The notes beneath the pieces are model-generated. The model saw nothing but the letters and a program-made list of their open reading frames with translations. It was not told where the DNA came from and did not search any database. From Eubacteriales bacterium (GTDB lineage: Bacteria > Bacillota > Clostridia > Oscillospirales > CAG-272): a DNA stretch of 64,000 nt. Below, piece after piece: positions 2,271 through 62,049 of the stretch; the first letter of the stretch is position 1, and the number at the start of each line of letters is the position of its first letter. The translations under genes and the position numbers were made by a program. The DNA lies in NCBI GenBank assembly GCA_045661245.1, contig JAZRFH010000002.1:655-64654 (forward strand). Direction: 5' to 3'.

Positions 2271-5141
2271 TTATATATCAAGAAGCTTAAGGTCAGCCAA
2301 TCCCTCGAGCAGCTTCTCCGGTGCTGTGATGCATACAGCTGAGGATTCAAGCGCTCTTTCAATAATATCACAGAGTATCATAAGTTCCTCTTTATCGGTC
2401 GCGAGCATTTCTTCTCTTACACGCTCCCTGTAGTCGCTGTCCAGGCCGTTAAGGAAGAGCACTGTAGCTGCAAGCGACGAGAAACGCGGGGTAGAAACAG
2501 TGTCGGTCGCTCCTATTGTACTGATAACGTATTTTGACAAATCAAGAGTTGGAATAATTTCACGAACGTCGGATACCAGCGATTTAAAATACTCGTAGGA
2601 TTTTACGGGCGAGGGGTCGCGGTAGGAATATGCGGTTATAATACCTGAGTTGCCTTTAACGGTAAAGCCGGTATCATACGCGCCGCCCTGTACTCTGATT
2701 TTGCCCCATAAGAGCTCGTATGATATAATTGCGCCAAGCACCGAAAGAGAGCCGCGGTATTTTTCGAGGCCTGCCGTCTTAAAGCTTGCGCTTAATGCCG
2801 AGTAGCCTACGGTGCTTTGCACGGCGATACCCTCGTTTTGTATCTTTGGTCTTGTAATATTCATATCCTGAGCTGATGTGCCACCCGCTTTGATAAGCGA
2901 TACAAGTCGGCTTGCATATTTTTTTGCGCCCTTAGCCGTAACGGCAAGAGTAAGTCTTGCGCGCCTCAGGTACTTTTCCCTGATTTCTGTAAACTTTGGT
3001 ATAAGCTTTTTTGAGGCGGCATCTGTATCTGTCACCAAATCCTTGAGATATTTGTGATAGCCGTAGCCGAATACTAGGTCGTTAAGATATGAAAGGTCGT
3101 CGAGTGACACTGCCGAGCGAGTAAGAGCGATAGATAATCCGTCTGCGGTAATCCCCTCGTGTGAGGACGTATAAAGCTGTGTGAGCTTTTGCTTGATTTT
3201 TGCGTGCGCGTCATATACCGTGCGATAGATATATTCGTCCAAAAGCTCGCACATCTTTTCAAACGAGCTGACAAGTGCAGAGCTTCTTACGGTAAGATAA
3301 AGCCTTGTCTTATCATTGTTTTTCTCGGCGGACAGGGATACCGAAAGGTCGCCGAGGGTGTGCTTCAGCTTAGCGCGGAATTTATCCGCGGCAGAATATT
3401 CGGTATCAAGCTCGGGCATTACAGAGGCAAAGACGCGCATAGCATGCATAGTATCTTCGTCGGCATCGGAAACGTCAAAGTACATATCTGTGTAAAGAAT
3501 TCCCGACGTTTCCATATCGTGTGCTATAACAGTGGCACCGTCAAGGGCAAATACCTCTGTGGGGGCTGTGGGCTCAGCCTTTCCAATATCCGCAATTTCA
3601 AGCGCGGGAATCGTTGCAAGTGCCTCGGGGCTGTCTTGCGCTGCTTGCCAAGCCTCGTATTCAGAAAGCTCACGGTCAAGCACTGCTTTTTGCTCCGCCG
3701 TCATTTCCTCTCTCAGCTTATCAAGTGACGCTCTTAGCTTGAGATCGGCTTTTTCCGATAAGTTCGAGTCCGGCTTTAACAGAACACTTACACGCTTGTT
3801 ATCAAGCACAGCATTAAAAAGCTTGTTAAAATAGTCGGTATCTAGCAGGAGTTTAAGCTCGTCAAAGGATTTATCGTAGGCAAAGGCGCACTCAGCGCTC
3901 TCACCGTAAAGTGCGTATTCCATAGCTGAGAGCATATATACCATTCCGCGCGGAAATGAGCCAAAATCAGCTTCGCGGGTTTTGAATTCTATGAGGTTAA
4001 TAGAGCCTTCGAGCCTTTCTCTGTCTATTCCGTCAGTGGCTATTTGCCGTGCCGTTTTATCAAAGAGGGATAAAAGCTCCTTTTCCTTGCCGTCCTTTAC
4101 TCCGAGAAACTGTACTGTAAGCGTGCTTTCAAGGCTTGATGCGTTATAGTAGATATACATATTCTCACAAAGGCCCGATTCAAGTATCTTGCTTTTTAAG
4201 GGTGATGAGTTGGTATCTGCTATAGAGTCAACGATTGCACTCATTGCAATATGCTCTTTGTAGTCAGAGTGAGAAAAGGCAGGGTAGGCTATTCCGAGCC
4301 TTGATTTATTTTCACTATTCTCGTTCTTTGATATCGGGTAATACTCGGTCACGGGCTCGGTATTTATTCTGCCCATATCAATATTGAACGACAAGCCGCT
4401 CCTATCATAGTCCTTAAGGTATGAATTAAGCAGAGCAAGAGTTTTATCAATATCAACCGAGCCGTCAAGGATAATAACCGAGTTATCGGGGTGGTAAAAG
4501 CGCTTGTGCGCTTCGAGAAATCTTTCGTATGTCAGGTTAGGTATAGCATCAGGATAACCGCCCGAGTCGTATGAGTAGGTGCCGCCCGTGTAAAGATTTT
4601 TGGATAGATAGTGCTCCATAAGCTCATCGGGCGATGCGTAGGCACCCTTCATTTCATTATAAACTATGCCGCCGATGTCAAGACTGCCGTCCTCGGTATA
4701 TTCAAGGTGGTGCCCCTCGGACATAAATATGCTTTTATTCTTAAGCACAAGCGGGTGAAGCACAGCGTCCATATAGACGTTAACGAGGTCTAAAAATGCC
4801 TTGTTGTTTTTGCTTGATACGGGGTAAATAGTTTTATCGGGGTAGGTAAAGGCATTAAGATAGGTGTAAAGCGAGCTTGAAAGCAGAGCTGTCATAGGGT
4901 CCTTAACAGGAAAATGCTCCGAGCCTGCAAGCACGGTGTGCTCAAGGATATGAAATACGCCGCTGTCGTCGGTCGGTGTGGTTTTAAAGCCTATAGCAAA
5001 GGTTTTGTTTTCGTCCTCTCTATCAATAAATATAAGCTTAGCACCGCTTCTTTTGTGGGTCATTTTAATAATATTCGCGGCTATTTCTTCGACACGGGTG
5101 GAGCTATCTATAATGAAACCGTGTAAAAATCCTTTATCCAT
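2271..5141 (-). CDS. M16C (PreP/insulinase-like) zinc metallopeptidase
   Basis: 956 aa. It carries the inverted zinc motif HILEHTVLAGSE (HxxEH) near the N-terminus. The length and layout fit the M16C presequence-protease-like family. Confidence 0.85.
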   Translation of the reverse strand: MDKGFLHGFIIDSSTRVEEIAANIIKMTHKRSGAKLIFIDREDENKTFAIGFKTTPTDDSGVFHILEHTVLAGSEHFPVKDPMTALLSSSLYTYLNAFTYPDKTIYPVSSKNNKAFLDLVNVYMDAVLHPLVLKNKSIFMSEGHHLEYTEDGSLDIGGIVYNEMKGAYASPDELMEHYLSKNLYTGGTYSYDSGGYPDAIPNLTYERFLEAHKRFYHPDNSVIILDGSVDIDKTLALLNSYLKDYDRSGLSFNIDMGRINTEPVTEYYPISKNENSENKSRLGIAYPAFSHSDYKEHIAMSAIVDSIADTNSSPLKSKILESGLCENMYIYYNASSLESTLTVQFLGVKDGKEKELLSLFDKTARQIATDGIDRERLEGSINLIEFKTREADFGSFPRGMVYMLSAMEYALYGESAECAFAYDKSFDELKLLLDTDYFNKLFNAVLDNKRVSVLLKPDSNLSEKADLKLRASLDKLREEMTAEQKAVLDRELSEYEAWQAAQDSPEALATIPALEIADIGKAEPTAPTEVFALDGATVIAHDMETSGILYTDMYFDVSDADEDTMHAMRVFASVMPELDTEYSAADKFRAKLKHTLGDLSVSLSAEKNNDKTRLYLTVRSSALVSSFEKMCELLDEYIYRTVYDAHAKIKQKLTQLYTSSHEGITADGLSIALTRSAVSLDDLSYLNDLVFGYGYHKYLKDLVTDTDAASKKLIPKFTEIREKYLRRARLTLAVTAKGAKKYASRLVSLIKAGGTSAQDMNITRPKIQNEGIAVQSTVGYSALSASFKTAGLEKYRGSLSVLGAIISYELLWGKIRVQGGAYDTGFTVKGNSGIITAYSYRDPSPVKSYEYFKSLVSDVREIIPTLDLSKYVISTIGATDTVSTPRFSSLAATVLFLNGLDSDYRERVREEMLATDKEELMILCDIIERALESSAVCITAPEKLLEGLADLKLLDI

Positions 5142-5142
5142 T

Positions 5143-6108
5143 TTATTTTAATTCCTCGAATTTGTATTTCAAATATTTTTCACCAAGCTCACGACAGAGC
5201 CTTTTGTATTTATCCGGGTCCTTTATGTAAGAAAGACCGTGGTCGGCACCGGGGAAGGTATCGTAAAGCATTATACCCGTATGCGCGGCAAAAATTTCGT
5301 CGGACATATATTTGGGTACAAAGCTATCAGCCTCACCGTGTATCAGCTGTATTGGTATTTTTGAGTTCCTTGCCGCCTCGGTAACAGAGGTCTTTTCGGG
5401 GTCAAAACGCGCAAAAATTATAGCTCCCAGTCTTATAAACGGCCAGACGAGAGATGGCAGCAGGTGCATTTTTCTGACGGTCAGGCAAATCTCGTCCTTA
5501 GCACTTGAATAAGGGCAGTCTGCAATAGCACATTTTACGGTTTTCGGCAGGTCAAGCGCGGAGGCGAGTATTACGGTAGCTGCACCCATAGAAATGCCCG
5601 TAAGCATAATTTCCGTATTCTCGCCAAAGCGCTCGGTAATGTATTCGCACCACAAAACGAGGTCGTGCTTTTCCTTCTCTCCAAAGGTAATTGAGCGCCC
5701 TTCACTTCTGCCGTGAGAGCGGTGATATACAAGCAAAAGATTGTGTCCTGCCTCAAAGCTGGTGCTTACACCGCCCGCAAAATCGTGTATCGGTGAGCTT
5801 CTGTAGCCGTGAAAAAGTATGTCTATAGGTGCACCGTCGTGGCGGTGATAATATCTTCCTACAAGCTTAAGTCCGTCGTGTGATTTTATGGTTATCTCTT
5901 CAAACGGCACTTTTCTTAATTCGTCGCCCATTCGCAAAATCTCGTCATAGCAGTCAAGTTTGATACCGAGGTCACGCTCGAGGTGTATCGGGCGGCGCCT
6001 GCGCTTAAAGGTTATAACATAGGTGATATAGGCAAAGGAGAGTAAAGAGGCAAGCACAAAAAGCACTGAAGAAACAGTAATAATAAGAGCGGTGTACTCA
6101 AAGTGCAT
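5143..6108 (-). CDS. Membrane-anchored alpha/beta hydrolase (serine hydrolase)
   Basis: 321 aa. It has an N-terminal TM helix, a nucleophile elbow GISMGAA, and C-terminal GEADSFV...DHG motifs. The stop is 1 nt from the M16 gene start. Confidence 0.7.
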   Translation of the reverse strand: MHFEYTALIITVSSVLFVLASLLSFAYITYVITFKRRRRPIHLERDLGIKLDCYDEILRMGDELRKVPFEEITIKSHDGLKLVGRYYHRHDGAPIDILFHGYRSSPIHDFAGGVSTSFEAGHNLLLVYHRSHGRSEGRSITFGEKEKHDLVLWCEYITERFGENTEIMLTGISMGAATVILASALDLPKTVKCAIADCPYSSAKDEICLTVRKMHLLPSLVWPFIRLGAIIFARFDPEKTSVTEAARNSKIPIQLIHGEADSFVPKYMSDEIFAAHTGIMLYDTFPGADHGLSYIKDPDKYKRLCRELGEKYLKYKFEELK

Positions 6109-6109
6109 A

Positions 6110-6715
6110 TTATTTTTCCTTTTCCTTGTGTGAAATTTTGATAGTGCCTAAAAGAATGATAATAGCTTGCAGTGGAAAGCCTATAATAAAGATAGACCAG
6201 ATGTTATCACTGTTTCTTATTAAAAGCTCGATGTAAATACTAAGGAGGATAAGCCATACAAAAAACGAGGAGCTGATAATTCTAAATATCTTGCTGTTAA
6301 AAAATACGTAGTTTGCAACAAAAAGAACGAGGGCCGTAGCAGGCATTGCCCATATAAAGAGTTGCCAGGGCTCTTTTTGCCACTGTACCGCGTAAAGGAC
6401 GGTTACTAAAAGCCAAACCGTCGAAACGGCAATAAGAGTTGTGATTATCTTACTTCCTATATTTTCTCTTTTAATATTCGGATTTTTAGCGGGGTTCTTT
6501 GGCTGCTCCTTTTGTAAAAGGTACTCGAACTTAACACCGTAAATGTCACAAACGCGGCAAAGAGTTTCAATATCCGGCAGCGTTTCGGCATGCTCCCAGC
6601 GCGATATCGCCTTATCGGTATAATTCAGCTTTTCAGCAAGTGCTTGTTGGGTCATTTTATGACTTTTTCTCAGCTCAACAAGGTTTTTTGCGATAATTTC
6701 CTTGATGTTTTCCAT
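6110..6715 (-). CDS. XRE-family HTH regulator with a C-terminal multi-pass membrane domain
   Basis: 201 aa. The N-terminal Cro/C1 HTH is LRKSHKMTQQALAEKLNYTDKAISRWE. About four hydrophobic helices follow. Confidence 0.75.
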   Translation of the reverse strand: MENIKEIIAKNLVELRKSHKMTQQALAEKLNYTDKAISRWEHAETLPDIETLCRVCDIYGVKFEYLLQKEQPKNPAKNPNIKRENIGSKIITTLIAVSTVWLLVTVLYAVQWQKEPWQLFIWAMPATALVLFVANYVFFNSKIFRIISSSFFVWLILLSIYIELLIRNSDNIWSIFIIGFPLQAIIILLGTIKISHKEKEK

Positions 6716-8798: not shown

Positions 8799-9674
8799 AT
8801 GACGTCAAGCTATCCCGAGATGGATGGGGGAAGGCTACAGGTTATAGAAAATATCCGTTTGGCAGTTGAAAGAGGCGACAGCTTTGCTAAGGTAGAGCTT
8901 GGCGACCCGAAAATAACCGAGGACGATATTAGGCGGGTTATATACCCGTTCGATAACCTGAGAAAAAAGCCTATAAATAAAATCAAGGCGTATATTGCGC
9001 GCAAGATTGCAGAGCGGGAAACGAAAAAGATAAATGTAAACACCGATATTATCGGCCTTGAAAACGCCCTCGGTATAAACGGCGGCGCGATTATCACCTG
9101 CAATCACTTTAATATTGTAGACAATACTATACCGAGAATTTTGGCGCAAAAGTGCGGCAGGGGCGCAAAATTTGATATTCTCATTCAAGAGAATAACGTT
9201 TTTATGGACGGTTTTTTCGGTTTTTTAATGAAAAACTGCAATACCTTGCCTATTTCTTCAAGCGTGCAGTACTCACTCAAAAACTTGAGGCCCGCGCTTG
9301 AAACGCTTCTCTCAAGAGGTGATTTCGTGTTAATATACCCTGAGCAGGAGATGTGGTTTAACTATAAAAAGCCGCGTACTCTTCGCGAGGGTGCGTATCA
9401 CTTTGCCTTTGATATGGGTGTGCCGATTATTCCGTGCTTCGTAGAGATGCGGGAGATTGACGGCTTTGACGCTCAGGGCTTTAGAAATATCAAGCATATT
9501 TTGCACGTAATGCTGCCTATTTACCCCGACAAGCAGCTTAGCGCAAGAGAGGGCAGGGCAAAAATGCGCGAAATCGACACCGCTTATAAAAAAGAGTGCT
9601 ACGAGCGCGTGTACGGAATCAAGCTTGACCCGGAATTTATTCCCGAGAGAGATATTGCGGGATACCACAAATAA
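8799..9674 (+). CDS. Second LPLAT-family acyltransferase
   Basis: It has a CNHFNIVDN (HX4D) block and a YPEQEMW block. ATG 8799 has a ggaga RBS upstream. Confidence 0.7.
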   Translation: MTSSYPEMDGGRLQVIENIRLAVERGDSFAKVELGDPKITEDDIRRVIYPFDNLRKKPINKIKAYIARKIAERETKKINVNTDIIGLENALGINGGAIITCNHFNIVDNTIPRILAQKCGRGAKFDILIQENNVFMDGFFGFLMKNCNTLPISSSVQYSLKNLRPALETLLSRGDFVLIYPEQEMWFNYKKPRTLREGAYHFAFDMGVPIIPCFVEMREIDGFDAQGFRNIKHILHVMLPIYPDKQLSAREGRAKMREIDTAYKKECYERVYGIKLDPEFIPERDIAGYHK

Positions 9675-9695
9675 AATCTTCATTATAATAGAAAG

Positions 9696-9724
9696 CGAGG
9701 TAGGGCTAACTTACCTCGTTTTTT
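9696..9724 (+). terminator. Intrinsic terminator after the acyltransferase operon
   Basis: The stem pairs cgaggta with tacctcg and is followed by TTTTTT. Confidence 0.7.
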
Positions 9725-9735
9725 AAAGACAAAAA

Positions 9736-9750
9736 TTAGAATAATTCTAA
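9736..9750 (+). promoter_or_regulatory. Fur-family (Per-box-like) operator 1
   Basis: TTAGAATAATTCTAA is a perfect 7-1-7 palindrome. It differs from the Bacillus Per box TTATAATNATTATAA by one symmetric position. Confidence 0.6.
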
Positions 9751-9767
9751 AAAAATTTAAAAACCTA

Positions 9768-9796
9768 TTGACAATATGATTTATTTCGTGTATAAT
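9768..9796 (+). promoter_or_regulatory. Sigma-A promoter of the perR-rbr unit
   Basis: TTGACA at 9768-9773, a 17-nt spacer, and TATAAT at 9791-9796. Confidence 0.6.
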
Positions 9797-9800
9797 AAAT

Positions 9801-9815
9801 TTAGAATGATTCTAA
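9801..9815 (+). promoter_or_regulatory. Fur-family (Per-box-like) operator 2
   Basis: TTAGAATGATTCTAA is a perfect 7-1-7 palindrome. It lies just downstream of the -10, over the expected transcription start. Confidence 0.6.
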
Positions 9816-9843
9816 ATCATTCAATAAAACGAAGGAGTTAACA

Positions 9844-10221
9844 GTGACAAGGCAGAGAGAGGCGATACTTGAGGTAATTCGCTCCGATTGTGCCCATCAC
9901 ACCGCAGAGGAGATTTTTCTCCTGGCAAAAGAGAGGCTGCCCGGAATTTCAAGGGCGACTGTCTACAACAATCTTAAGACACTTGAGAACATGAGGCTTA
10001 TTCGGCGTATAACGGGCGACGGTTTATGTGACAGATACGACAGCTCATATATTCCGCACGGTCATTTGCTTTGCGAGAGGTGTGGCAAAGTCTGGGACTT
10101 TACAATCGACGGATTTGATGCTATAATAAATGATGCAATAAAATGTGACTTTTCTTCGTATGAATTAAAGGTCAGGCGAATATGCAACGACTGTGCAAAA
10201 AAAGAGTCGGCATCTGTATAA
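9844..10221 (+). CDS. perR: Fur-family metalloregulator, probably peroxide-responsive (PerR-like)
   Basis: 125 aa with a GTG start and an aaggag RBS. It has a winged helix ([13 protein letters not shown]) and a CxxC...CxxC structural Zn site. The PerR assignment rests on the rubrerythrin gene downstream and the Per-like boxes upstream. Confidence 0.75.
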
Positions 10222-10273
10222 TTTAAATCACAAGAATATAATAATAAAACATATTACCAAAGGAGTTTACAAA

Positions 10274-10807
10274 ATGAATCTTAAGGGCACCAAAACAGAA
10301 CAGAATCTTATGACAGCTTTTGCGGGCGAGTCGCAGGCAAGAAACAAGTACACCTATTTTGCATCGGTAGCAAAGAAAGAGGGCTATGAGCAGATAGCCG
10401 CTATATTCCAGGAAACCGCAGACAACGAGAAGGAGCACGCAAAGCTTTGGTTCAAGGCTCTCGGCGGTCTTGGTGATACTGCAGCTAACCTTCTTGCAGC
10501 AGCAGAGGGCGAGAACTATGAGTGGACTGATATGTATGATACCTTTGCTAAGGAAGCAGAGGAAGAGGGCTTTAAAGCTCTTGCATTCCAGTTCAGAGCA
10601 GTAGCGGCAGTTGAGAAGGCTCACGAGGAGAGATACAGAAAGCTCCTTTCTAACGTTGAGCTTCAGCAGGTATTTGAGAAGGCTGAAATGACTATGTGGG
10701 AGTGCCGTAACTGCGGTCACCTCGTAATGGGCACCAAGGCTCCCGGCGTTTGCCCTGTTTGCGCACATCCTCAGGCTTATTTTGAAGTAAGAAAAGAAAA
10801 CTATTGA
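10274..10807 (+). CDS. rbr: Rubrerythrin
   Basis: The N-terminus [26 protein letters not shown] and the [12 protein letters not shown] di-iron motifs match rubrerythrin. The C-terminus has a rubredoxin-type CRNCGH...CPVC motif. ATG 10274 has an aaaggag RBS. Confidence 0.9.
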
Positions 10808-10863
10808 TTAAAGTTAAATAAATCTATTGAATAGAAATCAAAAATAGTTTATAATACCCATTG

Positions 10864-10894
10864 GGGCTGAGTCGTTTTGGCTCAGCCCTGTTTT
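10864..10894 (+). terminator. Intrinsic terminator after rbr
   Basis: The stem pairs gggctgag with ctcagccc and is followed by tgtttt. Confidence 0.65.
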
Positions 10895-10910
10895 GATGTC
10901 GGAGGGGATT

Positions 10911-11603
10911 ATGAGAATTCTTATAGTTGATGATGAGGCTGAAATCAGGCGTGTGCTTGAGCTTGTGCTTAAAAATTCAGGATATGAAACCGTTTCGGTT
11001 GGTGACGGCTCCTCTGCGGTTGAGGTGATGAAGGAATCGCCTGATTTTGACCTTTGTATTATGGATATAATGATGCCGAATATGTCGGGAGTTGAGGCTA
11101 CGCGCGCAATAAGAAAATTCTCCTCTGTGCCGATACTCTTTCTTACCGCAAAATCCTTGCCGCAGGATAAGGTTGAGGCATACAGCTCGGGCGGCGACGA
11201 TTATATTGTCAAGCCCTTTCCGATGGCAGACCTTTGCCTTAAGGTTGAGGCTATGACGCGTAGGTATAATCTCTATTCGGTAAAGGAAATACAGTCGAGC
11301 GAGGCTGTACGCTTGCCCTCGGGTATATCGGTTAATTTTGACGAGCGCGAGGTAATGAAAAACGGCCAGAGAATTGAAATGCGCGATAAGGAGATGGACG
11401 TGCTTTTGTACCTTGTGAAAAACAGGGGCAGATGCGTAAGCTCGGACGAGCTGTATGAAAACGTTTGGGGCGAGATGCCACTGCCGTCGTCGGGCAATAA
11501 TATAACGGTACACATATTGAATTTGCGCCGAAAGCTTGAAGAAAACTTTGCATCACCAAGACTTATAAGAACTGTGTGGGGAAAGGGTTATCAGATTGAT
11601 TGA
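10911..11603 (+). CDS. OmpR-family response regulator
   Basis: It has a receiver domain (RILIVDDE...DLCIMDIMMP...LTAK) and a winged-helix output domain (RTVWGKGYQ). ATG 10911 has a ggagggg RBS. Confidence 0.9.
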   Translation: MRILIVDDEAEIRRVLELVLKNSGYETVSVGDGSSAVEVMKESPDFDLCIMDIMMPNMSGVEATRAIRKFSSVPILFLTAKSLPQDKVEAYSSGGDDYIVKPFPMADLCLKVEAMTRRYNLYSVKEIQSSEAVRLPSGISVNFDEREVMKNGQRIEMRDKEMDVLLYLVKNRGRCVSSDELYENVWGEMPLPSSGNNITVHILNLRRKLEENFASPRLIRTVWGKGYQID

Positions 11604-13032
11604 TTATTTAAAGAAATTTATCTTTGCACGCTTTCGCTCGCTTAAGCTCTCTATGTTTTATACATTGTTTTTAGGACTTGCCGTTGGCGTAGCTATGTAT
11701 TTTGCTATCAACGGTATCTGCGAAAGCTACATAAATAATAAATATCTGTCAGAAGAGTCTAGACAGTCAAGAGAGGAAAGGTATCTTGAGGATTTACAGT
11801 CCTACGTTGACGAGTACGCACTTAAGAGCACGGATATAGATGCACTTTCCGGCTGGGTGCGTGATAAGGGGCATCTTTACGTTATGATTTACAAGGATAA
11901 CGAGCTTGTGCTCGACTCGGGCAGCGCAGAAAAGGAGCCCTCGGACTCCGAATCGGGCGAGAATGAGGGTGAGCTACCCGAGGAAAAAGACGACACGGGT
12001 ATTACCGTTACCTTTCCCACCAAAGAAGCCCTTATTGAATATGCAAAGTCAAAAGGCACGTATCCGATAGAGATGCAGGACGGTGTACCCCTTCTTGTTG
12101 CAATGGTTGATTATACTCAATACTTTTACTATGACATTGCAAATATTGCAAGTCTTTTTTTGGCGGCAATAGCATTGATGCTTGTTTTAATGATGTATTC
12201 AAGCAGAATTACAAGCAGAATTACAAAGCTGGCAAAGCAGGTACGCATCTGTGCATTGGGTGAGATGGACAGAAAAATAAAAAGTGACCTGAAAAACGGA
12301 CGTGACGAAATCACTGACCTCGCTGATAACGTTGAAAATATGAGATGCTCAATGCTTGAAAATATCGCAAAGGAAAGAGAGGCGATAAACTCGAATACAG
12401 AGCTTATAACCTCGGTGTCGCACGATATAAGAACGCCGCTTACGGTCCTGCTCGGATATATCGACATAATGAAGGGACATACGGCCGATGCCGCTATGCA
12501 GGAGTATTTAGATGCGTCAGAAAGATGTGCGCTCAGGCTGAAAACTATGTCCGACGATATGTTCAACTACTTCCTCGTCTTCGGTGCGGATGTTGGAGAA
12601 TGTAATTTTGAAGATTACGATGCAGCAACACTGTTTGAGCAAATACTCTCCGAGAAGATACTTCTATTGCGTGAGCAAGGGTACACTGTTGATATACCAA
12701 TGCTCGATAAGCTACACAGCAAGCTTGACGGAATAACTGTAAGCACAGATGCGCCAAAGCTTATGCGTATTGCTGAAAACGTATTTTCAAATATTACAAA
12801 ATACGCTGATAAATCACACCCCGTGTCAATTAAAAGCAAACTAAAGGGAAATGAAATAACAGTAGATATTGTAAATAAAACTTTACATAAATCGAATAAG
12901 ATTGAAAGCAATGGCATAGGTATACGCACCTGCACTAAGCTTGCAGAGCTGCTTAATATTGATTTTGCACACAAGAGAGATGGAGATTTGTTTCGTGTGA
13001 CTCTTGTATTTAAGGTGAAGGGGCGTAAATAA
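11596..13032 (+). CDS. Sensor histidine kinase with two TM helices and a ~140-aa extracytoplasmic loop
   Basis: It has the H-box SHDIRTPLT and N/G-box-like motifs in the C-terminal HATPase region. It overlaps the response-regulator stop by 8 nt. The TTG start is uncertain. Confidence 0.85.
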   Translation: MIDYLKKFIFARFRSLKLSMFYTLFLGLAVGVAMYFAINGICESYINNKYLSEESRQSREERYLEDLQSYVDEYALKSTDIDALSGWVRDKGHLYVMIYKDNELVLDSGSAEKEPSDSESGENEGELPEEKDDTGITVTFPTKEALIEYAKSKGTYPIEMQDGVPLLVAMVDYTQYFYYDIANIASLFLAAIALMLVLMMYSSRITSRITKLAKQVRICALGEMDRKIKSDLKNGRDEITDLADNVENMRCSMLENIAKEREAINSNTELITSVSHDIRTPLTVLLGYIDIMKGHTADAAMQEYLDASERCALRLKTMSDDMFNYFLVFGADVGECNFEDYDAATLFEQILSEKILLLREQGYTVDIPMLDKLHSKLDGITVSTDAPKLMRIAENVFSNITKYADKSHPVSIKSKLKGNEITVDIVNKTLHKSNKIESNGIGIRTCTKLAELLNIDFAHKRDGDLFRVTLVFKVKGRK

Positions 13033-13941
13033 ATGTCTGATTTATCATTTGCCGTCTTAACGGACGAGCTGAGAAATGAACTTGTTTTTAAAGGTGATGT
13101 ATATTCTGACGACCTAGCAATGATGCTGGATAGCTTTCTTGAGCTTTCCCGAGAGGGCATTGAAGCCGCGGTAGCAATTAAATGCGGTTGCCTTTTGGTA
13201 AGAATTTTTGCGGACGGAGAATATAGCTTTGTTTCTCCGATAGAGCTTGAAGACGGAGCTTCAGTTGCTGATGCGCTTATACTTGTTCGTGACTATGCTA
13301 TGCGCCAGATGCTGCCTCTTATATTTACCGACGTTCCGCGCGCTGATATTGAGTATTATCAAAACTTTTTTAAAATGCCGGAGGCACGCGTATATCCTGA
13401 TGAGGACGATACGTTTTTCGTCAGTGTTTTTAGCGAGTGCGACGGCGTTGATAAGCCACCTAGCTTATATACTGAAAGACTTATTCTGGGTGAGATTTCA
13501 GAAGAGCATGTGCCGTCTTATGCAAGACTTTGCAGGGATAAAGACGTCAACAGATACTGGGGATATGACGTGTCGGCAGATAATAAAGAGGATACCGACG
13601 AATTTTTTCTTGAGGTCGCGAGCCGCGAGCTTGACATTTCACAGGCTATAACGCTTGGAATATTTTTTGATGGGGCACTGATTGGCGAGGCTGTTATATA
13701 TGCCTTTGATTTTACAGGCGGCGCATCATTTGGTATTCGTCTTTTGCCCGAATATCACGGCAAGGGCTTTGGCACTGAAGCACTCGGTGCAGTTATCTCC
13801 TATTCGCGTGATATTGGGCTTGATTATCTATGTGCCGACGTTATGCCGGAAAATACGAAATCTATTAAAATGATGGACAAATATTTCGACACGGGTCGGG
13901 AAAAGTGCGGAAAAATGCATTTTAAACTAAAGCTTAACTAA
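13033..13941 (+). CDS. Two-domain protein: unknown N-terminal domain plus a RimJ/RimL-type (Acetyltransf_3) GNAT N-acetyltransferase
   Basis: The C-terminal half reads TERLILGEI...RYWGYD...EYHGKGFGTEA...ENTKSIKMMDK, which fits the RimJ/L GNAT pattern. The ATG immediately follows the kinase stop with a 0-nt gap. Confidence 0.7.
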   Translation: MSDLSFAVLTDELRNELVFKGDVYSDDLAMMLDSFLELSREGIEAAVAIKCGCLLVRIFADGEYSFVSPIELEDGASVADALILVRDYAMRQMLPLIFTDVPRADIEYYQNFFKMPEARVYPDEDDTFFVSVFSECDGVDKPPSLYTERLILGEISEEHVPSYARLCRDKDVNRYWGYDVSADNKEDTDEFFLEVASRELDISQAITLGIFFDGALIGEAVIYAFDFTGGASFGIRLLPEYHGKGFGTEALGAVISYSRDIGLDYLCADVMPENTKSIKMMDKYFDTGREKCGKMHFKLKLN

Positions 13942-13979
13942 GTATATTTAAACAAATCAAAAAAAAGGGGGGGAGTGGC

Positions 13980-16571
13980 TTGAAAAATATAGTAGTAGGC
14001 ATACTTGCGCACGTTGATGCGGGTAAAACTACGCTTTCCGAGGCGCTCCTTTATACCTCGGGGGCTATTGAAAGACTCGGCAGGGTCGATAAGCGAGATG
14101 CCTTTCTTGATACACATTCACTTGAGCGCGAGCGCGGAATAACCATATTCTCAAAGCAGGCGATAATTGATACTCAAAGCTCACACGTAACACTTGTTGA
14201 TACTCCCGGACACGTTGACTTCTCCTGCGAAACCGAGCGCGCTCTCTCTATACAGGATTATGCAATACTTGTGATAAGTGCAGAGGACGGTGTGCGCTCG
14301 CATACGAAAACACTGTGGCAGATGCTAAGGGCAAGAAAAATACCGACCTTTATTTTCGTAAACAAGTGCGATATATCGGATAGGAGCCGTGACGAGCTAA
14401 TGGCTGAAATAAAGACTACTCTAACCTCGTTTGCGGTTGATTTCTCAGCCCCAGGTACGGATAGCTTTTTTGAAAACGTTGCATCCTGTGACGAGAGGTT
14501 AATGCAGGAATTTTTCGACACGGGTGCGGTAAATAATGCTGATATTGCTGTGTCAGTCGCATCCTCGCGCCTCTTTCCGTGTTACTTTGGTTCGGCATTA
14601 AAGCTTACGGGAGTCCGTGAGCTGCTCTTGGGTATTGACAGATATACAATACAAAAAGAATACTCCAGCACTATATTTGGTGCGCGGGTATTTAAAATCA
14701 CCCGTGATAAGCTTGGGCGCAGGCTCTGCTTTGCAAAAATAACGGGCGGCACCCTTGCACCCAAGGACGGTATAACAGTAAGGCTCGCGGGCGGTGAGGA
14801 GATTATCGAGAAAATAGAGGAGTTAAGGGTTTTCTCCGGTGAAAAATCAAAGCCTCAAAAGTTAGCCGTGCCGGGCACGGTTGTGGCACTTATAGGCCCT
14901 CAAAGCATAAGTGCGGGTATGGGGCTTGGATTTGAGGCAAGTGACGAGCCCGTACTCAGCCCCGTTCTTGATTACAGAATTATTTTGCCCGAGGGAGTAA
15001 GTGCGCACGAGATGTATGCGCGCCTTTTGGTGATTGCAGAAGAGGACCCTGCTTTAAATCTCAAGTTTGACCCAAGGCTTAGCGAGATACGCGTGAGCCT
15101 TATGGGAGAAATTCAGCTTGAGGTGTTAAAAAGGCTTGTTTTAGAACGCACGGGTGTAGAAATCGAGTTTGACGAGGGCTCTATTCTATATCGCGAAACC
15201 ATAGATAAAACGGTATTCGGTGCAGGGCATTTTGAGCCGCTGCGCCATTACGCAGAGGTGCATTTACGTCTTGACCCGCTACCCGAGGGGTCGGGTGTTG
15301 TTGCTTCGTCTGAGCTTTCACGCGAGGTTCTATCGCTTAACTTCCAGCGTCTTGTTATGACACATATTGAAGAGCGCACACACAGAGGCATATTGCTTGG
15401 CGCACCTCTCACAGACGTTGAGATAACTCTCGTTGGCGGTAAAGCGCATCTTAAGCACACCGAGGGCGGGGATTTCAGACAGGCTACCTACAGAGCCGTA
15501 AGGCAGGCCTTGCGTAAGGGCGGTAGCGTGATACTTGAGCCGACCTTTAATTTTAAAATTGAGCTGCCCGGTGAAAACCTCGGCCGTGCGCTTACCGATA
15601 TTGCAAATATGCACGGCACCGTTGACTTTACGGATACAGTGGGCGGCATCGCAGTGCTTGAGGGCAATTGCCCGGTATATACTATGCGCTCATATCCCGC
15701 CGTGCTTCGTGCCTATACACGCGGCTACGGTAAAATTGCCTTGACGGTCGGAAAATACGTGCCGGCTCACAATTCTGACGAGCTGGTGGCAAAATTCGGT
15801 TATGACCCCGATACTGACGAGCGCAATCCTTCGGGCTCTGTTTTTTGCCGTGCAGGTGCGGGCTATACTGTTCCTTGGTATGAAGCAGATGCGCTTATGC
15901 ACACCGGGCCCCAGGGGCAAGATAAGGAAGAGGTCAGCGAAGACGTACGCATTCCAAAGCGCGCCGCGGCAAAGGTGTATGGCGGCACTGCCGAAGAGGA
16001 TAAGGAGCTTATGCGCATCTTCGAGGCAACCTACGGCAAGATAAAGCCGCGCAAAGTTACAGAAAAGTTTGAGAACAAGGCAAAAACCGAGCCGAAACGA
16101 CGCCCCGTGTCAAAAAAACAACATCAAAACGAGTATTTGGTGCTTGATGGTTATAACGTTATCTTCGGCTGGGAAGAGCTGAAAAAGCTGGCTTTATCGG
16201 ATTTTTCTCTTGCCAGAGACGCCCTTGTGCGTATTGCCTGTAATTATGCCGCGATACGCCGCGTGTCCGTTATTGTAGTTTTTGACGCGTATAAGCGTGC
16301 GGGCGGTGAGGGTAGTGTCGAGCACCTCGGCCCTGTGACGGTTGTTTACACAAAGGAAAAGCAAACCGCGGACAGCTATATTGAGCGCACAACTTACGAG
16401 CTGGCAGACGATAATTTCGTACGCGTCGTAACGGGCGACCTTGACGAGCAGTTTATAATTCTCGGCAACGGGGCGTATCGCGTCAGCATCGACGAGTTCA
16501 GGCTTGAATGCGAGAGTGTAACGGGCGAGATATCCGAGCTTGCCGAAAAATACGGAAAAAACAGAAAATAA
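13980..16571 (+). CDS. Tet(M)/EF-G-like translational GTPase fused to a C-terminal YacP/Rae1-type NYN ribonuclease domain
   Basis: 863 aa. The G motifs are AHVDAGKT, RGITI, DTPGH and NKCD, and the protein is collinear with ribosomal protection proteins for about 640 aa. A Lys/Glu-rich linker follows. The C-terminal ~160 aa carry LVLDGYNVI, VVFDAY, TADSYIE and VVTGD, as in B. subtilis YacP/Rae1. The TTG start follows a ggggggag RBS. Confidence 0.8.
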   Translation: MKNIVVGILAHVDAGKTTLSEALLYTSGAIERLGRVDKRDAFLDTHSLERERGITIFSKQAIIDTQSSHVTLVDTPGHVDFSCETERALSIQDYAILVISAEDGVRSHTKTLWQMLRARKIPTFIFVNKCDISDRSRDELMAEIKTTLTSFAVDFSAPGTDSFFENVASCDERLMQEFFDTGAVNNADIAVSVASSRLFPCYFGSALKLTGVRELLLGIDRYTIQKEYSSTIFGARVFKITRDKLGRRLCFAKITGGTLAPKDGITVRLAGGEEIIEKIEELRVFSGEKSKPQKLAVPGTVVALIGPQSISAGMGLGFEASDEPVLSPVLDYRIILPEGVSAHEMYARLLVIAEEDPALNLKFDPRLSEIRVSLMGEIQLEVLKRLVLERTGVEIEFDEGSILYRETIDKTVFGAGHFEPLRHYAEVHLRLDPLPEGSGVVASSELSREVLSLNFQRLVMTHIEERTHRGILLGAPLTDVEITLVGGKAHLKHTEGGDFRQATYRAVRQALRKGGSVILEPTFNFKIELPGENLGRALTDIANMHGTVDFTDTVGGIAVLEGNCPVYTMRSYPAVLRAYTRGYGKIALTVGKYVPAHNSDELVAKFGYDPDTDERNPSGSVFCRAGAGYTVPWYEADALMHTGPQGQDKEEVSEDVRIPKRAAAKVYGGTAEEDKELMRIFEATYGKIKPRKVTEKFENKAKTEPKRRPVSKKQHQNEYLVLDGYNVIFGWEELKKLALSDFSLARDALVRIACNYAAIRRVSVIVVFDAYKRAGGEGSVEHLGPVTVVYTKEKQTADSYIERTTYELADDNFVRVVTGDLDEQFIILGNGAYRVSIDEFRLECESVTGEISELAEKYGKNRK

Positions 16572-16574
16572 AAG

Positions 16575-16625
16575 CCCCGAGGGATACCGAAGCTCAGCGC
16601 CAAGGTTTCTCGGGGATTTGTTTTT
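16575..16625 (+). terminator. Probable terminator after the GTPase-NYN gene
   Basis: A 7-bp stem pairs ccccgag with ctcgggg. The loop is long (27 nt). The sequence atttgttttt follows. Confidence 0.45.
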
Positions 16626-16749
16626 ACGGCTATGTGCCGTTTTCAAGTGAATCATGAGTGTACCCTTTGTACGGGATATTTTATGGATTTTTTAATTTGA
16701 CAAATAAAAGGCCGCAATCACCCCATAATGAAGCTTTTGCGGCTCTTTA

Positions 16750-17451
16750 TTAAAGCGATTCTATCGCGTATATAATCTCAGGCAGCTTTTCAAGCTCGTG
16801 TGACATGACGTCTGGTGTAAGACCCGGCTTGCTGTAGGCGTGTACGTTTGCCTCAATGCCTACGTTGCCATCTTTACCGCTTCTGGGGCTTGTCACCTGC
16901 ATATCGGTGACGGGATAATTTTCCGAAAGATAATCAAGCACGCACCGAACCGATTCGCAGGAGTTAATTTCAATGTATATACCAAATCGGGAGTTTCTGC
17001 CGGTAAGCCTGTATTCAAGACGGTGAAGTATCGTTGTTACCAAAACCTCGGCGACAAACGTTACTATCGCACCCTCGTAAAATCCTATACCGAGAGCAAT
17101 ACCTATAGCCGCACCGCACCAAAGACCCGCCGCTGTGGTAAGACCTGTAATCTGAAAGCGACCTTTTATAAGGATAGTGCCGACGCCGAGAAAGCCTATT
17201 CCCGATATAACCTGCGCCGCAACTCTCAGTGGGTCGCCTGAAAAGCCGAGTACGCTATAAGCGTAAACGCCAGTCATTGCAGTAAGCGTTGCACCAAGGC
17301 ACACGAGAATGTGAGTGCGCATGCCTGCGGCTCTGCCGTGCTTTCGCCTTTCCATACCTATAACGCCGCCGATAACGATGGCAAGCGCGACCTTTAATAT
17401 CGCCCACCAAAGCTCCGAGAGCTCACAGAGAAAGCTCCAAAATTCACTCAT
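16750..17451 (-). CDS. mgtC: MgtC/SapB family membrane protein
   Basis: 233 aa with the MgtC signature GMERRKHGRAAGMRTHILVCLGATL and a C-terminal ACT-like soluble domain. Confidence 0.85.
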   Translation of the reverse strand: MSEFWSFLCELSELWWAILKVALAIVIGGVIGMERRKHGRAAGMRTHILVCLGATLTAMTGVYAYSVLGFSGDPLRVAAQVISGIGFLGVGTILIKGRFQITGLTTAAGLWCGAAIGIALGIGFYEGAIVTFVAEVLVTTILHRLEYRLTGRNSRFGIYIEINSCESVRCVLDYLSENYPVTDMQVTSPRSGKDGNVGIEANVHAYSKPGLTPDVMSHELEKLPEIIYAIESL

Positions 17452-17484
17452 TTATAATAAATCCTCCGATTTTTGTCTAATCAT

Positions 17485-17513
17485 ATTATATTACAAGCAT
17501 AAAAATATGTCAA
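17485..17513 (-). promoter_or_regulatory. Consensus sigma-A promoter for mgtC
   Basis: On the minus strand: TTGACA (17513-17508), a 17-nt spacer, and TATAAT (17490-17485). Confidence 0.55.
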
Positions 17514-17545
17514 TGTATTTTATAAAACCTTATGCAAAATAACAC

Positions 17546-17574
17546 TTGAAAAACGCGCGAAAGGGTTGTATAAT
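17546..17574 (+). promoter_or_regulatory. Sigma-A promoter for the HD / NaPi / metY / metA gene string
   Basis: TTGAAA at 17546-17551, a 17-nt spacer, and TATAAT at 17569-17574. Confidence 0.55.
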
Positions 17575-17615
17575 ATAATTGGGAAAAAATGAGCTAAACC
17601 GAACTTGGAGGTTTT

Positions 17616-18275
17616 ATGGTAACCTTAGAAACCTTGCTTTCGAGCGAAGAAATAAGAACCTATATTGAGGCACAGGATAAGTCGCTTCTTGCACTCGGGT
17701 ATACCGAGCACAGCTTTGCACACGTAAAGAAGGTGTCGGCCGATGCGGCAAAAATTCTTGAAATACTCGGCTACAGCGAGAGGGACAGAGAGCTTGCAGA
17801 AATTGCGGGGTATCTACACGATATAGGCAACCTCGTCAACCGCGTAAATCACTCTCAGTCGGGTGCTCTGATAGCCTTCCGTTTATTGGACAAGCTCGGC
17901 ATGCCGGCAGATGAGATAGCCACGGTCGTTACCGCTATAGGTAATCACGACGAGGGCACGGGCGTGCCTGTTTCACCCATCGCTGCGGCACTTATACTTG
18001 CAGATAAGGCAGACGTGCGCCGCTCAAGAGTGCGCAATCAAGATTTTGCCACTTTTGATATACACGACAGGGTTAATTACTCGGCCAAGGAGTCCTCGCT
18101 TGATATCTCAGAGGATAAACGCATTATACGCCTGTCGCTGACCGTTGATAAAGAGATAAGCACGGTTATGGATTATTTTGAGATTTTTCTTGAAAGAATG
18201 ATACTGTGCCGTAAGGCGGCCGAGGTGCTGGGCCTTAGCTTTAAGCTTGAAATTAACGGGCAGGAATTACTTTGA
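17616..18275 (+). CDS. HD-domain phosphohydrolase
   Basis: 219 aa with the HD signature H...HDIG...H...D, seen as HSFAHV, YLHDIGN and GNHDE. Confidence 0.75.
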   Translation: MVTLETLLSSEEIRTYIEAQDKSLLALGYTEHSFAHVKKVSADAAKILEILGYSERDRELAEIAGYLHDIGNLVNRVNHSQSGALIAFRLLDKLGMPADEIATVVTAIGNHDEGTGVPVSPIAAALILADKADVRRSRVRNQDFATFDIHDRVNYSAKESSLDISEDKRIIRLSLTVDKEISTVMDYFEIFLERMILCRKAAEVLGLSFKLEINGQELL

Positions 18276-60441: not shown

Positions 60442-62049
60442 ATGTCCGATTTAATCACTTCTATGCACAACGAAATAAAAAGGAGGCGCACCTTTGCGAT
60501 AATCTCGCACCCCGACGCAGGTAAAACAACGCTTACAGAGAAATTCCTGCTCTACGGCGGTGCTATTCAAAGTGCGGGCTCTGTAAAGGGTAAGCAGTCT
60601 GATAAGCACGCGGTTTCCGACTGGATGGATATTGAAAAGCAAAGAGGTATCTCTATCACCTCGTCTGTTATGCAGTTTGAGTATAACGGCTACTGCATCA
60701 ATATTCTTGACACGCCCGGCCACCAGGACTTCTCTGAGGATACCTACAGAACGCTTATGGCGGCTGACAGCGCGGTAATGGTTATAGACGCCGCAAAGGG
60801 TATTGAGCCGCAGACTCGTAAGCTCTTTAAGGTCTGCGCTATGCGCGATATTCCTATTTTTACCTTTATAAACAAGCTTGACCGTGAGGCTAAGGACCCG
60901 TTTGATTTGCTTGACGAACTCGAGAGCGAGTTCGGTATCGGCACCTATCCTATGAACTGGCCAATCGGCTGCGGTCAGAAGTTCCGCGGAGTTTATGACA
61001 GAAACGAAAGGCAAATACTTTTCTTTGACGACGCGCACAGGGGCCGTGAGCTTATACACGGAGTAAAGTGCGATATTACCGAAACAGAAAAGCTTGACGG
61101 GCTTATCGGTGAGAATATGCGCGAGGAGCTTGTTGAACAGATTGAGCTGCTTGACGGTGCGTCGTTTGACTTTGACCTTGAAAAGGTAAGGCACGGTAAG
61201 CTCTCGCCTGTATTCTTCGGCTCGGCTCTTAATAACTTCGGAATAGAGCCATTCCTTGAGCATTTCCTTGAAATGACTACCTCGCCACTGCCGAGATTTG
61301 CAGAGGGTGAGCTTATAGACCCGTTTGACGATAAATTCACTGCATTCGTATTCAAGATACAGGCGAATATGAATAAGGCGCACAGAGATAGAATTGCATT
61401 TATGCGTATCTGCTCGGGCAAGTTTGAGCGCGGGCGCGACTACTACCACGTTCAGGGTGCAAAATCCTTCCGCCTCTCCCAGCCTCAGCAAATGATGGCA
61501 GATGCCCGTGAGGTTATAGACGAGGCGTATGCGGGAGATATAATCGGCGTATTTGACCCCGGTATTTTCTCTATAGGCGACACTGTGTGCGAGAAGGGTG
61601 AAAAAACGCGCTTTGAGGGTATACCCACCTTTGCGCCCGAGCACTTTGCTATGGTAGAGCAGGTGGACTCTATGAAGCGTAAGCAGTTTGCCAAGGGTAT
61701 GAACCAGATAGCACAAGAGGGTGCGATACAGATATTCTTTGAGCCGAACTCGGGTCTTGAAAGAGTAATCGTCGGTGTTGTAGGCGTATTGCAGTTCGAG
61801 GTGCTTGAGCACAGACTCAAGAGTGAGTACGGCTGTGACCTCAGGCGCACGAATCTTAACTATCAGCAAATACGCTGGATTGATAACGAGGGGCTTGACC
61901 CCAAAACGCTTAAGCTCTCGCACGATACGAAATGGGTGCAGGACTTCAGAGGTAAAAATCTGCTTATTTTCACCAGTGAGTGGAGTATTCGCTGGGTGCT
62001 TGAGGATAACCCCGAGCTTAAGCTTTCCGAATTCAGTAAGAATGATTGA
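60442..62049 (+). CDS. prfC: Peptide chain release factor 3
   Basis: The motifs RRTFAIISHPDAGKTTLTEK, DTPGHQDF and NKLD, and the overall RF3 length, all fit. ATG 60442 follows an aaggaa RBS. Confidence 0.95.
   Translation: MSDLITSMHNEIKRRRTFAIISHPDAGKTTLTEKFLLYGGAIQSAGSVKGKQSDKHAVSDWMDIEKQRGISITSSVMQFEYNGYCINILDTPGHQDFSEDTYRTLMAADSAVMVIDAAKGIEPQTRKLFKVCAMRDIPIFTFINKLDREAKDPFDLLDELESEFGIGTYPMNWPIGCGQKFRGVYDRNERQILFFDDAHRGRELIHGVKCDITETEKLDGLIGENMREELVEQIELLDGASFDFDLEKVRHGKLSPVFFGSALNNFGIEPFLEHFLEMTTSPLPRFAEGELIDPFDDKFTAFVFKIQANMNKAHRDRIAFMRICSGKFERGRDYYHVQGAKSFRLSQPQQMMADAREVIDEAYAGDIIGVFDPGIFSIGDTVCEKGEKTRFEGIPTFAPEHFAMVEQVDSMKRKQFAKGMNQIAQEGAIQIFFEPNSGLERVIVGVVGVLQFEVLEHRLKSEYGCDLRRTNLNYQQIRWIDNEGLDPKTLKLSHDTKWVQDFRGKNLLIFTSEWSIRWVLEDNPELKLSEFSKND

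Follow-up and report, generated by a model that had tools for sequence, protein, structure and literature searches.

The present work concerns four adjacent genes in a 64,000-nucleotide stretch of DNA, hereafter the window, from a Eubacteriales bacterium (Clostridia, Oscillospirales, CAG-272; NCBI GenBank assembly GCA_045661245.1, contig JAZRFH010000002.1, positions 655 to 64,654 of the forward strand). These genes encode, in this order, a response regulator, a histidine kinase, a two-domain GNAT acetyltransferase and a fusion of a Tet/EF-G-like GTPase with a Rae1-type nuclease (hereafter the fusion). A preliminary description of the locus had suggested that they form a signal-controlled module acting on translating ribosomes or mRNA. 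The comparison reported here, which covered about 160 related genomes overall, showed that this genome does carry the four genes in close packing, yet that the idea of a conserved four-gene machine mostly fails. The locus comprises the following features (window positions).

10827-10855, plus strand: promoter-like site TTGAAT-17-TATAAT (consensus scan, 10/12 matches), a putative promoter upstream of the response regulator gene
10862-10890, plus strand: 13-bp G+C-rich hairpin (13 pairs), then TGTTTTGATG, 3' of the promoter-like site
10911-11603, plus strand: OmpR/PhoB-family response regulator, 230 amino acids (PF00072 Response_reg, 101 bits; PF00486 Trans_reg_C, 81 bits)
11596-13032, plus strand: membrane sensor histidine kinase, 478 amino acids (HisKA, 45.9 bits; weak HAMP, 14.6 bits; divergent ATPase domain)
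13033-13941, plus strand: two-domain GNAT acetyltransferase, 302 amino acids (PF13302 Acetyltransf_3, 70 bits, residues 149-283)
13942-13979, plus strand: A-rich, hairpin-free spacer of 38 nt between the acetyltransferase and fusion genes, with the ribosome-binding site GGGGGGAG
13980-16571, plus strand: fusion gene, 863-residue product, with a TTG start behind GGGGGGAG, 38 nt past the acetyltransferase stop codon
13980-15773, plus strand: Tet/EF-G-like GTPase part of the fusion, residues 1-598, G domain and domains II-V (Pfam GTP_EFTU and EF-G domains 2, III, IV and C)
15774-16136, plus strand: linker of the fusion, ~120 residues (599-719), second half Lys/Glu-rich, no Pfam family matched
16137-16571, plus strand: Rae1/YacP-type NYN endoribonuclease domain of the fusion, residues 720-860, and stop codon (PF05991, 135.8 bits, cut-off 24.6)
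16572-16595, no strand assigned: hairpin right after the fusion stop codon, with a T-run on the minus-strand side only, facing the MgtC gene
16750-17451, minus strand: MgtC gene, convergent to the fusion gene

The list of open reading frames and the junction sequences confirmed that the four genes lie head to tail on the plus strand, at the coordinates first assigned to them. The regulator and kinase genes overlap by 8 nt, the ATG of the acetyltransferase directly abuts the TAA stop codon of the kinase, and the fusion follows across the 38-nt hairpin-free gap; in these respects the preliminary description was borne out, as it was in its domain assignments and in the operon-like arrangement of this locus. 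The same 8-nt overlap is found in relatives (L098, L099 and L100), the coupling of the kinase and acetyltransferase genes, with codons abutting or overlapping, is conserved among relatives, and the acetyltransferase-fusion spacers of head-to-tail relatives are likewise short and hairpin-free. As judged from this layout, co-transcription of all four genes is plausible in this genome. A weak promoter-like site (TTTAAA-16-TATATT, 13921-13948, 9/12 matches) overlaps the acetyltransferase stop codon, so that the fusion gene may also have an internal start.

Terminators had been reported only at the two ends of the group. Hairpins are indeed present at both ends, but the upstream one lies 3' of the promoter-like site and the downstream one carries its T-run on the minus strand only, which makes this argument softer than it was first put. 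In the window, the promoter-like site is immediately followed by the hairpin and then by the ribosome-binding site of the regulator gene. Relatives possess a comparable site (TTGAAA/TTGACA...TATAAT/TATACT) 40-70 nt ahead of the regulator start, and G425 and G482 show the usual order, the reverse of that here, with the terminator before the promoter. Because it lies downstream of the promoter-like site, the hairpin at 10862-10890 may be the rubrerythrin terminator, may form a stem-loop at the 5' end of the operon mRNA, or may serve in both ways; it could end rubrerythrin transcription and also protect or attenuate the operon mRNA. No Rfam element was found in 9600-17700, the sole match being a chance snoRNA at E 0.66.

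The GTPase motifs of the fusion are intact (G1 AHVDAGKT, G3 DTPGH, G4 NKCD). Over their full length, its G domain and domains II-V can be aligned with Tet(M)/Tet(O), TetO and TetM being its nearest solved relatives (~245 bits, E ~1e-71). Unlike these proteins, the fusion has an extra 265-residue C-terminal linker plus nuclease, and its loop III is replaced: residues 490-499 (HLKHTEGGDF) align with YSPVSTPADF in domain IV loop III of TetM/TetO, where the YSPVST motif contacts the tetracycline site (PMC4342817). A role as a tetracycline-protection protein was rejected on account of this replacement and of a score of 400 bits against tet_protect (NF012153), about half the cut-off of 775; the score against NF033148 was 288 bits for a cut-off of 1100. 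The NYN domain, above the NYN_YacP cut-off, aligns with Bacillus subtilis YacP/Rae1 (5MQ8, 5MQ9) at E 5e-19. The hallmark of NYN_YacP, four conserved Asp residues of which the first is followed by a GYN motif (PMC5499597), is retained, since D723-G-Y-N, D769, D798 and D820 match B. subtilis YacP, with the Asp of LDGYN, VFDA, TAD and TGD conserved. In B. subtilis, Rae1 cleaves mRNA where ribosomes have stalled or collided (PMC12407103; PMC13622287). There it is a separate protein of ~170-180 residues encoded in the gltX-cysS-yacO-yacP operon (PMC5499597), whereas here the domain forms the C-terminus of an 863-residue GTPase; by analogy, it would be expected to act on mRNA within ribosomes. Given the intact GTPase and NYN motifs and the activity of Rae1, the fusion most likely docks at the ribosomal factor site in a GTP-dependent manner and cleaves mRNA by means of its tethered nuclease.

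Such TetM-like/NYN_YacP fusions have already been noted in Clostridia (Atkinson, 2015, PMC4342817; Matelska et al., 2017, PMC5499597). The published proteins belong to the same taxon and have the identical architecture, a five-domain Tet/EF-G-like GTPase followed by a YacP-type NYN domain, and the protein described here shows no difference from them. As for genomic context, only a possible co-expression with genes of helix-turn-helix proteins was mentioned (Matelska et al., 2017, PMC5499597), and neither paper describes a neighbourhood of response regulator, histidine kinase and tandem GNAT. The statement that no system of this composition was known thus holds for the four-gene set, but not for the fusion itself. 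Our literature search found no experimental study of the fusion. A second gene for an EF-G-family translational GTPase, 27% identical to EF-G over 535 amino acids, lies elsewhere in the window (60475-61956).

The fusion is widespread: thousands of full-length homologues share its architecture, hundreds of them at 45-65% identity, and full-length copies occur in ~105 of 401 genomes of the order, in 18 of its 30 families. We examined 62 fusion loci outside the genus, from many families of the same order, by clustering all neighbours encoded in 7-kb flanks (crude open reading frame calls). No neighbour cluster was common to more than 6 of these 62 loci, which argues that the fusion is a free-standing gene outside the genus. 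When the window proteins were used as queries (phmmer), a GNAT was found within 7 kb in a single locus, with four genes' distance from the fusion, and response regulators turned up in three. A four-gene system conserved across lineages is contradicted by these 62 loci. The fusion did not appear to have replaced a stand-alone Rae1 either: in 41 related genomes, with or without the fusion, no stand-alone YacP/Rae1 was detected, NYN_YacP occurring only inside the fusion, and this explanation was rejected in the absence of a complementary pattern.

Within the genus, linkage was more frequent and the layout varied. The sample consisted of 101 genomes (100 species genomes and this one), in which all fusion loci and the unlinked GNAT loci were inspected. 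The GNAT gene adjoins the fusion in 34 of 53 fusion loci; 17 of these are head to tail and 17 are convergent, including two with a 0.9-1.8 kb gap, and the other 19 loci contain no GNAT. Outside the genus, the outcome is the one that the preliminary description itself had named as counter-evidence. The even split between orientations is at odds with a conserved co-directional arrangement, as is the finding that, in five convergent genomes, the fusion has a promoter and terminator of its own, a terminator hairpin and then TTGACT-N17-TATACT standing directly upstream of it. No sign of a regulator box shared by the regions upstream of the response regulator and of the fusion was seen: these five genomes had no more 8-mers in common between the fusion upstream region and their own regulator upstream region (1.7) than with those of other genomes (1.5), at a divergence too high, among the genomes compared, for a proper motif search. 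In four genomes (G020, G456, G460 and G475), the fusion apparently follows its upstream gene without a gap able to hold a promoter.

Gene losses followed no single pattern. The GNAT gene has been deleted in G425, G442, G440 and G451, where the kinase gene stands directly before the fusion; in G483, both the two-component genes and the GNAT are gone and rubrerythrin faces the fusion. The GNAT is kept and the two-component genes are gone in nine genomes (G436, G457, G012, G013, G427, G472, G453, G489 and G450). In G424, G461, G469, G489, L100 and L101, the regulator-kinase-GNAT unit or a lone GNAT has no fusion within 6 kb, and assemblies of decent quality that retain the unit, such as G461, lack the fusion. 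Altogether, the GNAT, the two-component system and the fusion each disappeared singly several times: the GNAT was lost independently at least 4-5 times with the fusion kept, and the two-component system at least four times with the GNAT kept. Among the genomes having neither fusion nor GNAT, G010 shows the Fur and rubrerythrin genes and then unrelated genes, and four others have no Fur orthologue at E 1e-20 and seemingly differ over a larger region.

The order of events was examined in a maximum-likelihood tree of 51 genus fusions and 11 outgroups, in which the genus fusions are monophyletic (support 100). The earliest-branching clade consists of G450, G492, G482, G434, G454 and G439, with fusion and GNAT on different contigs; their adjacency first appears in the common ancestor of the other three clades. 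Of these, one with 16 species is wholly head to tail; the window pairs with G448 in a second head-to-tail group, surrounded in the tree by convergent relatives. The locus must therefore have been inverted at least two or three times. An invertible element behind the orientation flips was rejected, as no convincing inverted repeats flank the fusion (weak matches only, at most 70-83% complementary, none bracketing the gene). Each clade has its own set of genes on the other flank of the fusion. In the window, a hydrolase gene and an M16-peptidase gene are found upstream on the minus strand (2271-6715); in G012 and G013 (L021 and L091), they stand directly downstream of the fusion, a displacement which shows that the whole 15-kb neighbourhood was repeatedly reshuffled within the genus. 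In several convergent loci (L095, 11700-14366; L015 and L016, cluster c12), the fusion is immediately preceded, in the same direction, by a gene for an ABC_tran-FtsX fusion transporter (MacB/BceAB-like) of ~888 residues.

In derived clades, the fusion, an EF-G paralogue, takes the position beside the GNAT that is held by the housekeeping str operon in the earliest clade, where the Fur-rubrerythrin-regulator-kinase-GNAT series is co-directional with that operon (e.g., L155, 6363-11714, in G439; also L154, L156 and L158). This swap could have come about through recombination between paralogous GTPase genes.

The acetyltransferase was the basis of a further step of the preliminary description, according to which membership in Acetyltransf_3 implied action on ribosomes, as for RimJ/RimL. 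The C-terminal domain bears RLLPEYHGKGFG, and the acetyl-CoA-type loop (YHGKGFG) is confined to this half of the protein. The N-terminal ~145 residues have a GNAT-like order of secondary structure without an acetyl-CoA motif; in the AlphaFold model (mean pLDDT 92.3), the helix and strand order of the GNAT fold is seen in both halves. Foldseek matches, at 14-20% identity, included RimJ, RimL, SpeG, MccE, PA3944, a lasso-peptide acetyltransferase and the tandem GNATs VipF and BlmB, and RimJ/RimL fitted no better than SpeG, MccE, PA3944, or the lasso-peptide or bleomycin acetyltransferases. No RimJ, RimL or RimI NCBIfam model matched at E <= 0.01, weak matches being limited to unrelated models. 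An identification as a RimJ/RimL orthologue was rejected on these two grounds, which also leave "ribosomal acetyltransferase" unsupported as a family assignment; the inference from the domain name was thus a weak step. Like RimJ/RimL, the C-terminal domain belongs to PF13302, and it superimposes on them with a TM-score (target-length normalised) of ~0.6-0.74. Unlike them, the protein has an extra N-terminal pseudo-GNAT-like domain, and its gene is coupled to a histidine kinase gene, a context that is not known for rimJ or rimL. The protein is most likely, from its motifs and predicted fold, an acetyl-CoA-dependent acetyltransferase with a pseudo-GNAT partner domain. Its family is tiny, with 27 clusters in 5.8 billion proteins, all of ~300 residues, and, among the genomes searched, is confined to this genus, as none of 16 genomes of other genera of the same order contained it; the regulator-kinase-GNAT set is a recurring unit in metagenome contigs and genus genomes.

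With regard to the two-component genes, orthologues of the response regulator are 55-67% identical within the genus. The kinase has two predicted transmembrane segments around a ~135-residue loop, as read from its sequence, and an H-box SHDIRTPL that begins at residue 275, with His276. HATPase_c scores 15.2 bits for a cut-off of 26.4; the G1 box (DxGxG) is unrecognisable, the N box and the GIGI box are retained, and in the kinases of relatives this domain is likewise "faint" or absent in precomputed Pfam hits. The best NCBIfam match of the regulator is of the VanR type (204 bits, under the cut-off of 350), and the kinase scores 76.5 bits against the VanS model, under the cut-off of 400. The pair resembles VanRS-type and other Firmicutes OmpR/HisKA systems in its receiver and winged-helix domains, its two transmembrane segments and HisKA domain, and its overlapping genes. 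It differs from VanRS in scores far below the cut-offs, in the divergent ATPase domain and in the third gene of the operon, a GNAT instead of a resistance ligase or an ABC transporter. With His276 and the receiver aspartates, it is most likely an ordinary envelope-sensing pair, presumably autoregulated from the promoter near 10827-10855. A known anti-phage defence system was rejected as an explanation of the locus: PADLOC gave one receiver-domain fragment match (E 3e-4) and none for the kinase, the GNAT or the fusion.

The explanation that we favour, and consider probable, is that the four genes owe their proximity to shared descent within a single genus of uncultured, small-genome Clostridia, and are co-transcribed here by read-through. 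Two units would have to be distinguished. The comparison establishes which genes these are, that their motifs are intact, how they are distributed and oriented, and that they were lost independently; the biochemical activities, the signal, the regulon and the co-transcription are what we infer for them, as follows. The first would be an operon in which the genes for response regulator, histidine kinase and tandem-GNAT acetyltransferase are translationally coupled; the envelope-sensing kinase would presumably phosphorylate the OmpR-type regulator, which would switch the operon on so that the acetyltransferase is made. The second would be the widespread, free-standing fusion of a Tet/EF-G-like GTPase and a Rae1-type nuclease, which most likely docks in its GTP form at the ribosomal factor-binding site, its NYN nuclease cutting the mRNA on stalled or collided ribosomes. 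In the lineage of the window, the fusion gene would have ended up following the GNAT gene head to tail at a distance of 38 nt, where read-through from the two-component promoter probably transcribes it as well.

Several observations nevertheless weigh against mere neighbourhood and favour a functional link restricted to the genus, which we regard as unlikely. Presence and absence are strongly associated, with 45 of the 101 genus genomes having both fusion and GNAT, 8 the fusion only, 7 the GNAT only and 41 neither, counts which are uncorrected for shared ancestry or for joint deletion of adjacent genes. Where both genes are present, their adjacency is kept in 34 of 45 genomes; it outlived at least two orientation changes and several replacements of far-flank genes, and it is retained more often than the older adjacency of rubrerythrin to the module, for which the yardstick is that 20 of 42 loci have a Fur-rubrerythrin pair running in the same direction no more than 2.6 kb upstream of the module. 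In 17 species, at two separate positions of the tree, the GNAT and fusion genes stand head to tail across a short spacer devoid of hairpins, the regulator and kinase genes still adjoin the fusion in the four genomes that lost the GNAT, and in the earliest-branching clade the Fur-rubrerythrin-regulator-kinase-GNAT series lies directly upstream of another translation locus, the str operon rpsL-rpsG-fusA-tuf. If these observations reflect function, the two-component system would sense a stress and drive both the tandem GNAT and the GTPase-Rae1 fusion, with acetylation gating the recruitment of the nuclease to ribosomes; the target would be a ribosomal protein (e.g., the L7/L12 stalk, as for RimL), a translation factor or the fusion itself, a proposal that shares the low probability of the module as a whole. 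RimJ and RimL are indeed among the fold matches of the GNAT, yet no Rim-family model recognises it. Moreover, linkage is missing from the 62 loci of other genera, convergent pairs make up half of the adjacent cases, five of these pairs having a separate fusion promoter and no motif in common with the regulator upstream region, and the repeated separate losses of GNAT and two-component genes, like the decent assemblies that keep the unit without the fusion, show that the parts can do without one another. The patterns of association and adjacency fit descent plus physical linkage, yet they would also be expected under a functional link. A more specific version, that in this genus a sensor-controlled tandem GNAT is tied to translational GTPases as such, acetylating a ribosomal protein of the factor site or the GTPase and placing a ribosome-bound mRNA nuclease under an envelope signal, is drawn from the position of the module beside rpsL-rpsG-fusA-tuf in the earliest clade and beside the fusion in derived clades, through at least two inversions; we consider it quite improbable.

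More doubtful still is an accessory antibiotic-defence cluster, in which a VanRS-like pair would induce a drug- or peptide-modifying acetyltransferase with a Tet-like ribosome-rescue factor nearby, the genes being co-selected as resistance genes and not interacting. The VanR and VanS types are the best NCBIfam similarities of the regulator and kinase, and TetO and TetM the nearest solved relatives of the fusion, yet the scores against VanR, VanS and tet_protect are far below the curated cut-offs and the tetracycline-displacing loop III motif is not conserved. The fold matches of the GNAT to MccE (microcin C immunity), PA3944 and the bleomycin and lasso-peptide acetyltransferases would be in line with such a role, as would the variable content of the locus across the genus and the ABC-FtsX transporter gene flanking the fusion in several convergent loci. 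By contrast, the fusion is a widespread chromosomal gene, monophyletic in the genus, unlike a mobile resistance gene, and no mobile-element genes were seen in the examined flanks.

Neighbourhood by descent thus remains the reading that we retain. The survey maps one variable locus over about 50 species and delimits a small family, restricted to the genus, of tandem GNATs whose translation is coupled to that of a histidine kinase. As the fusion operates without these neighbours almost everywhere, future work on it need not include them. If, on the other hand, it were true that the four genes cooperate, they would constitute the first signal-transduction system controlling a ribosome-docking nuclease, and would offer an entry point to the regulation of Rae1-type enzymes.

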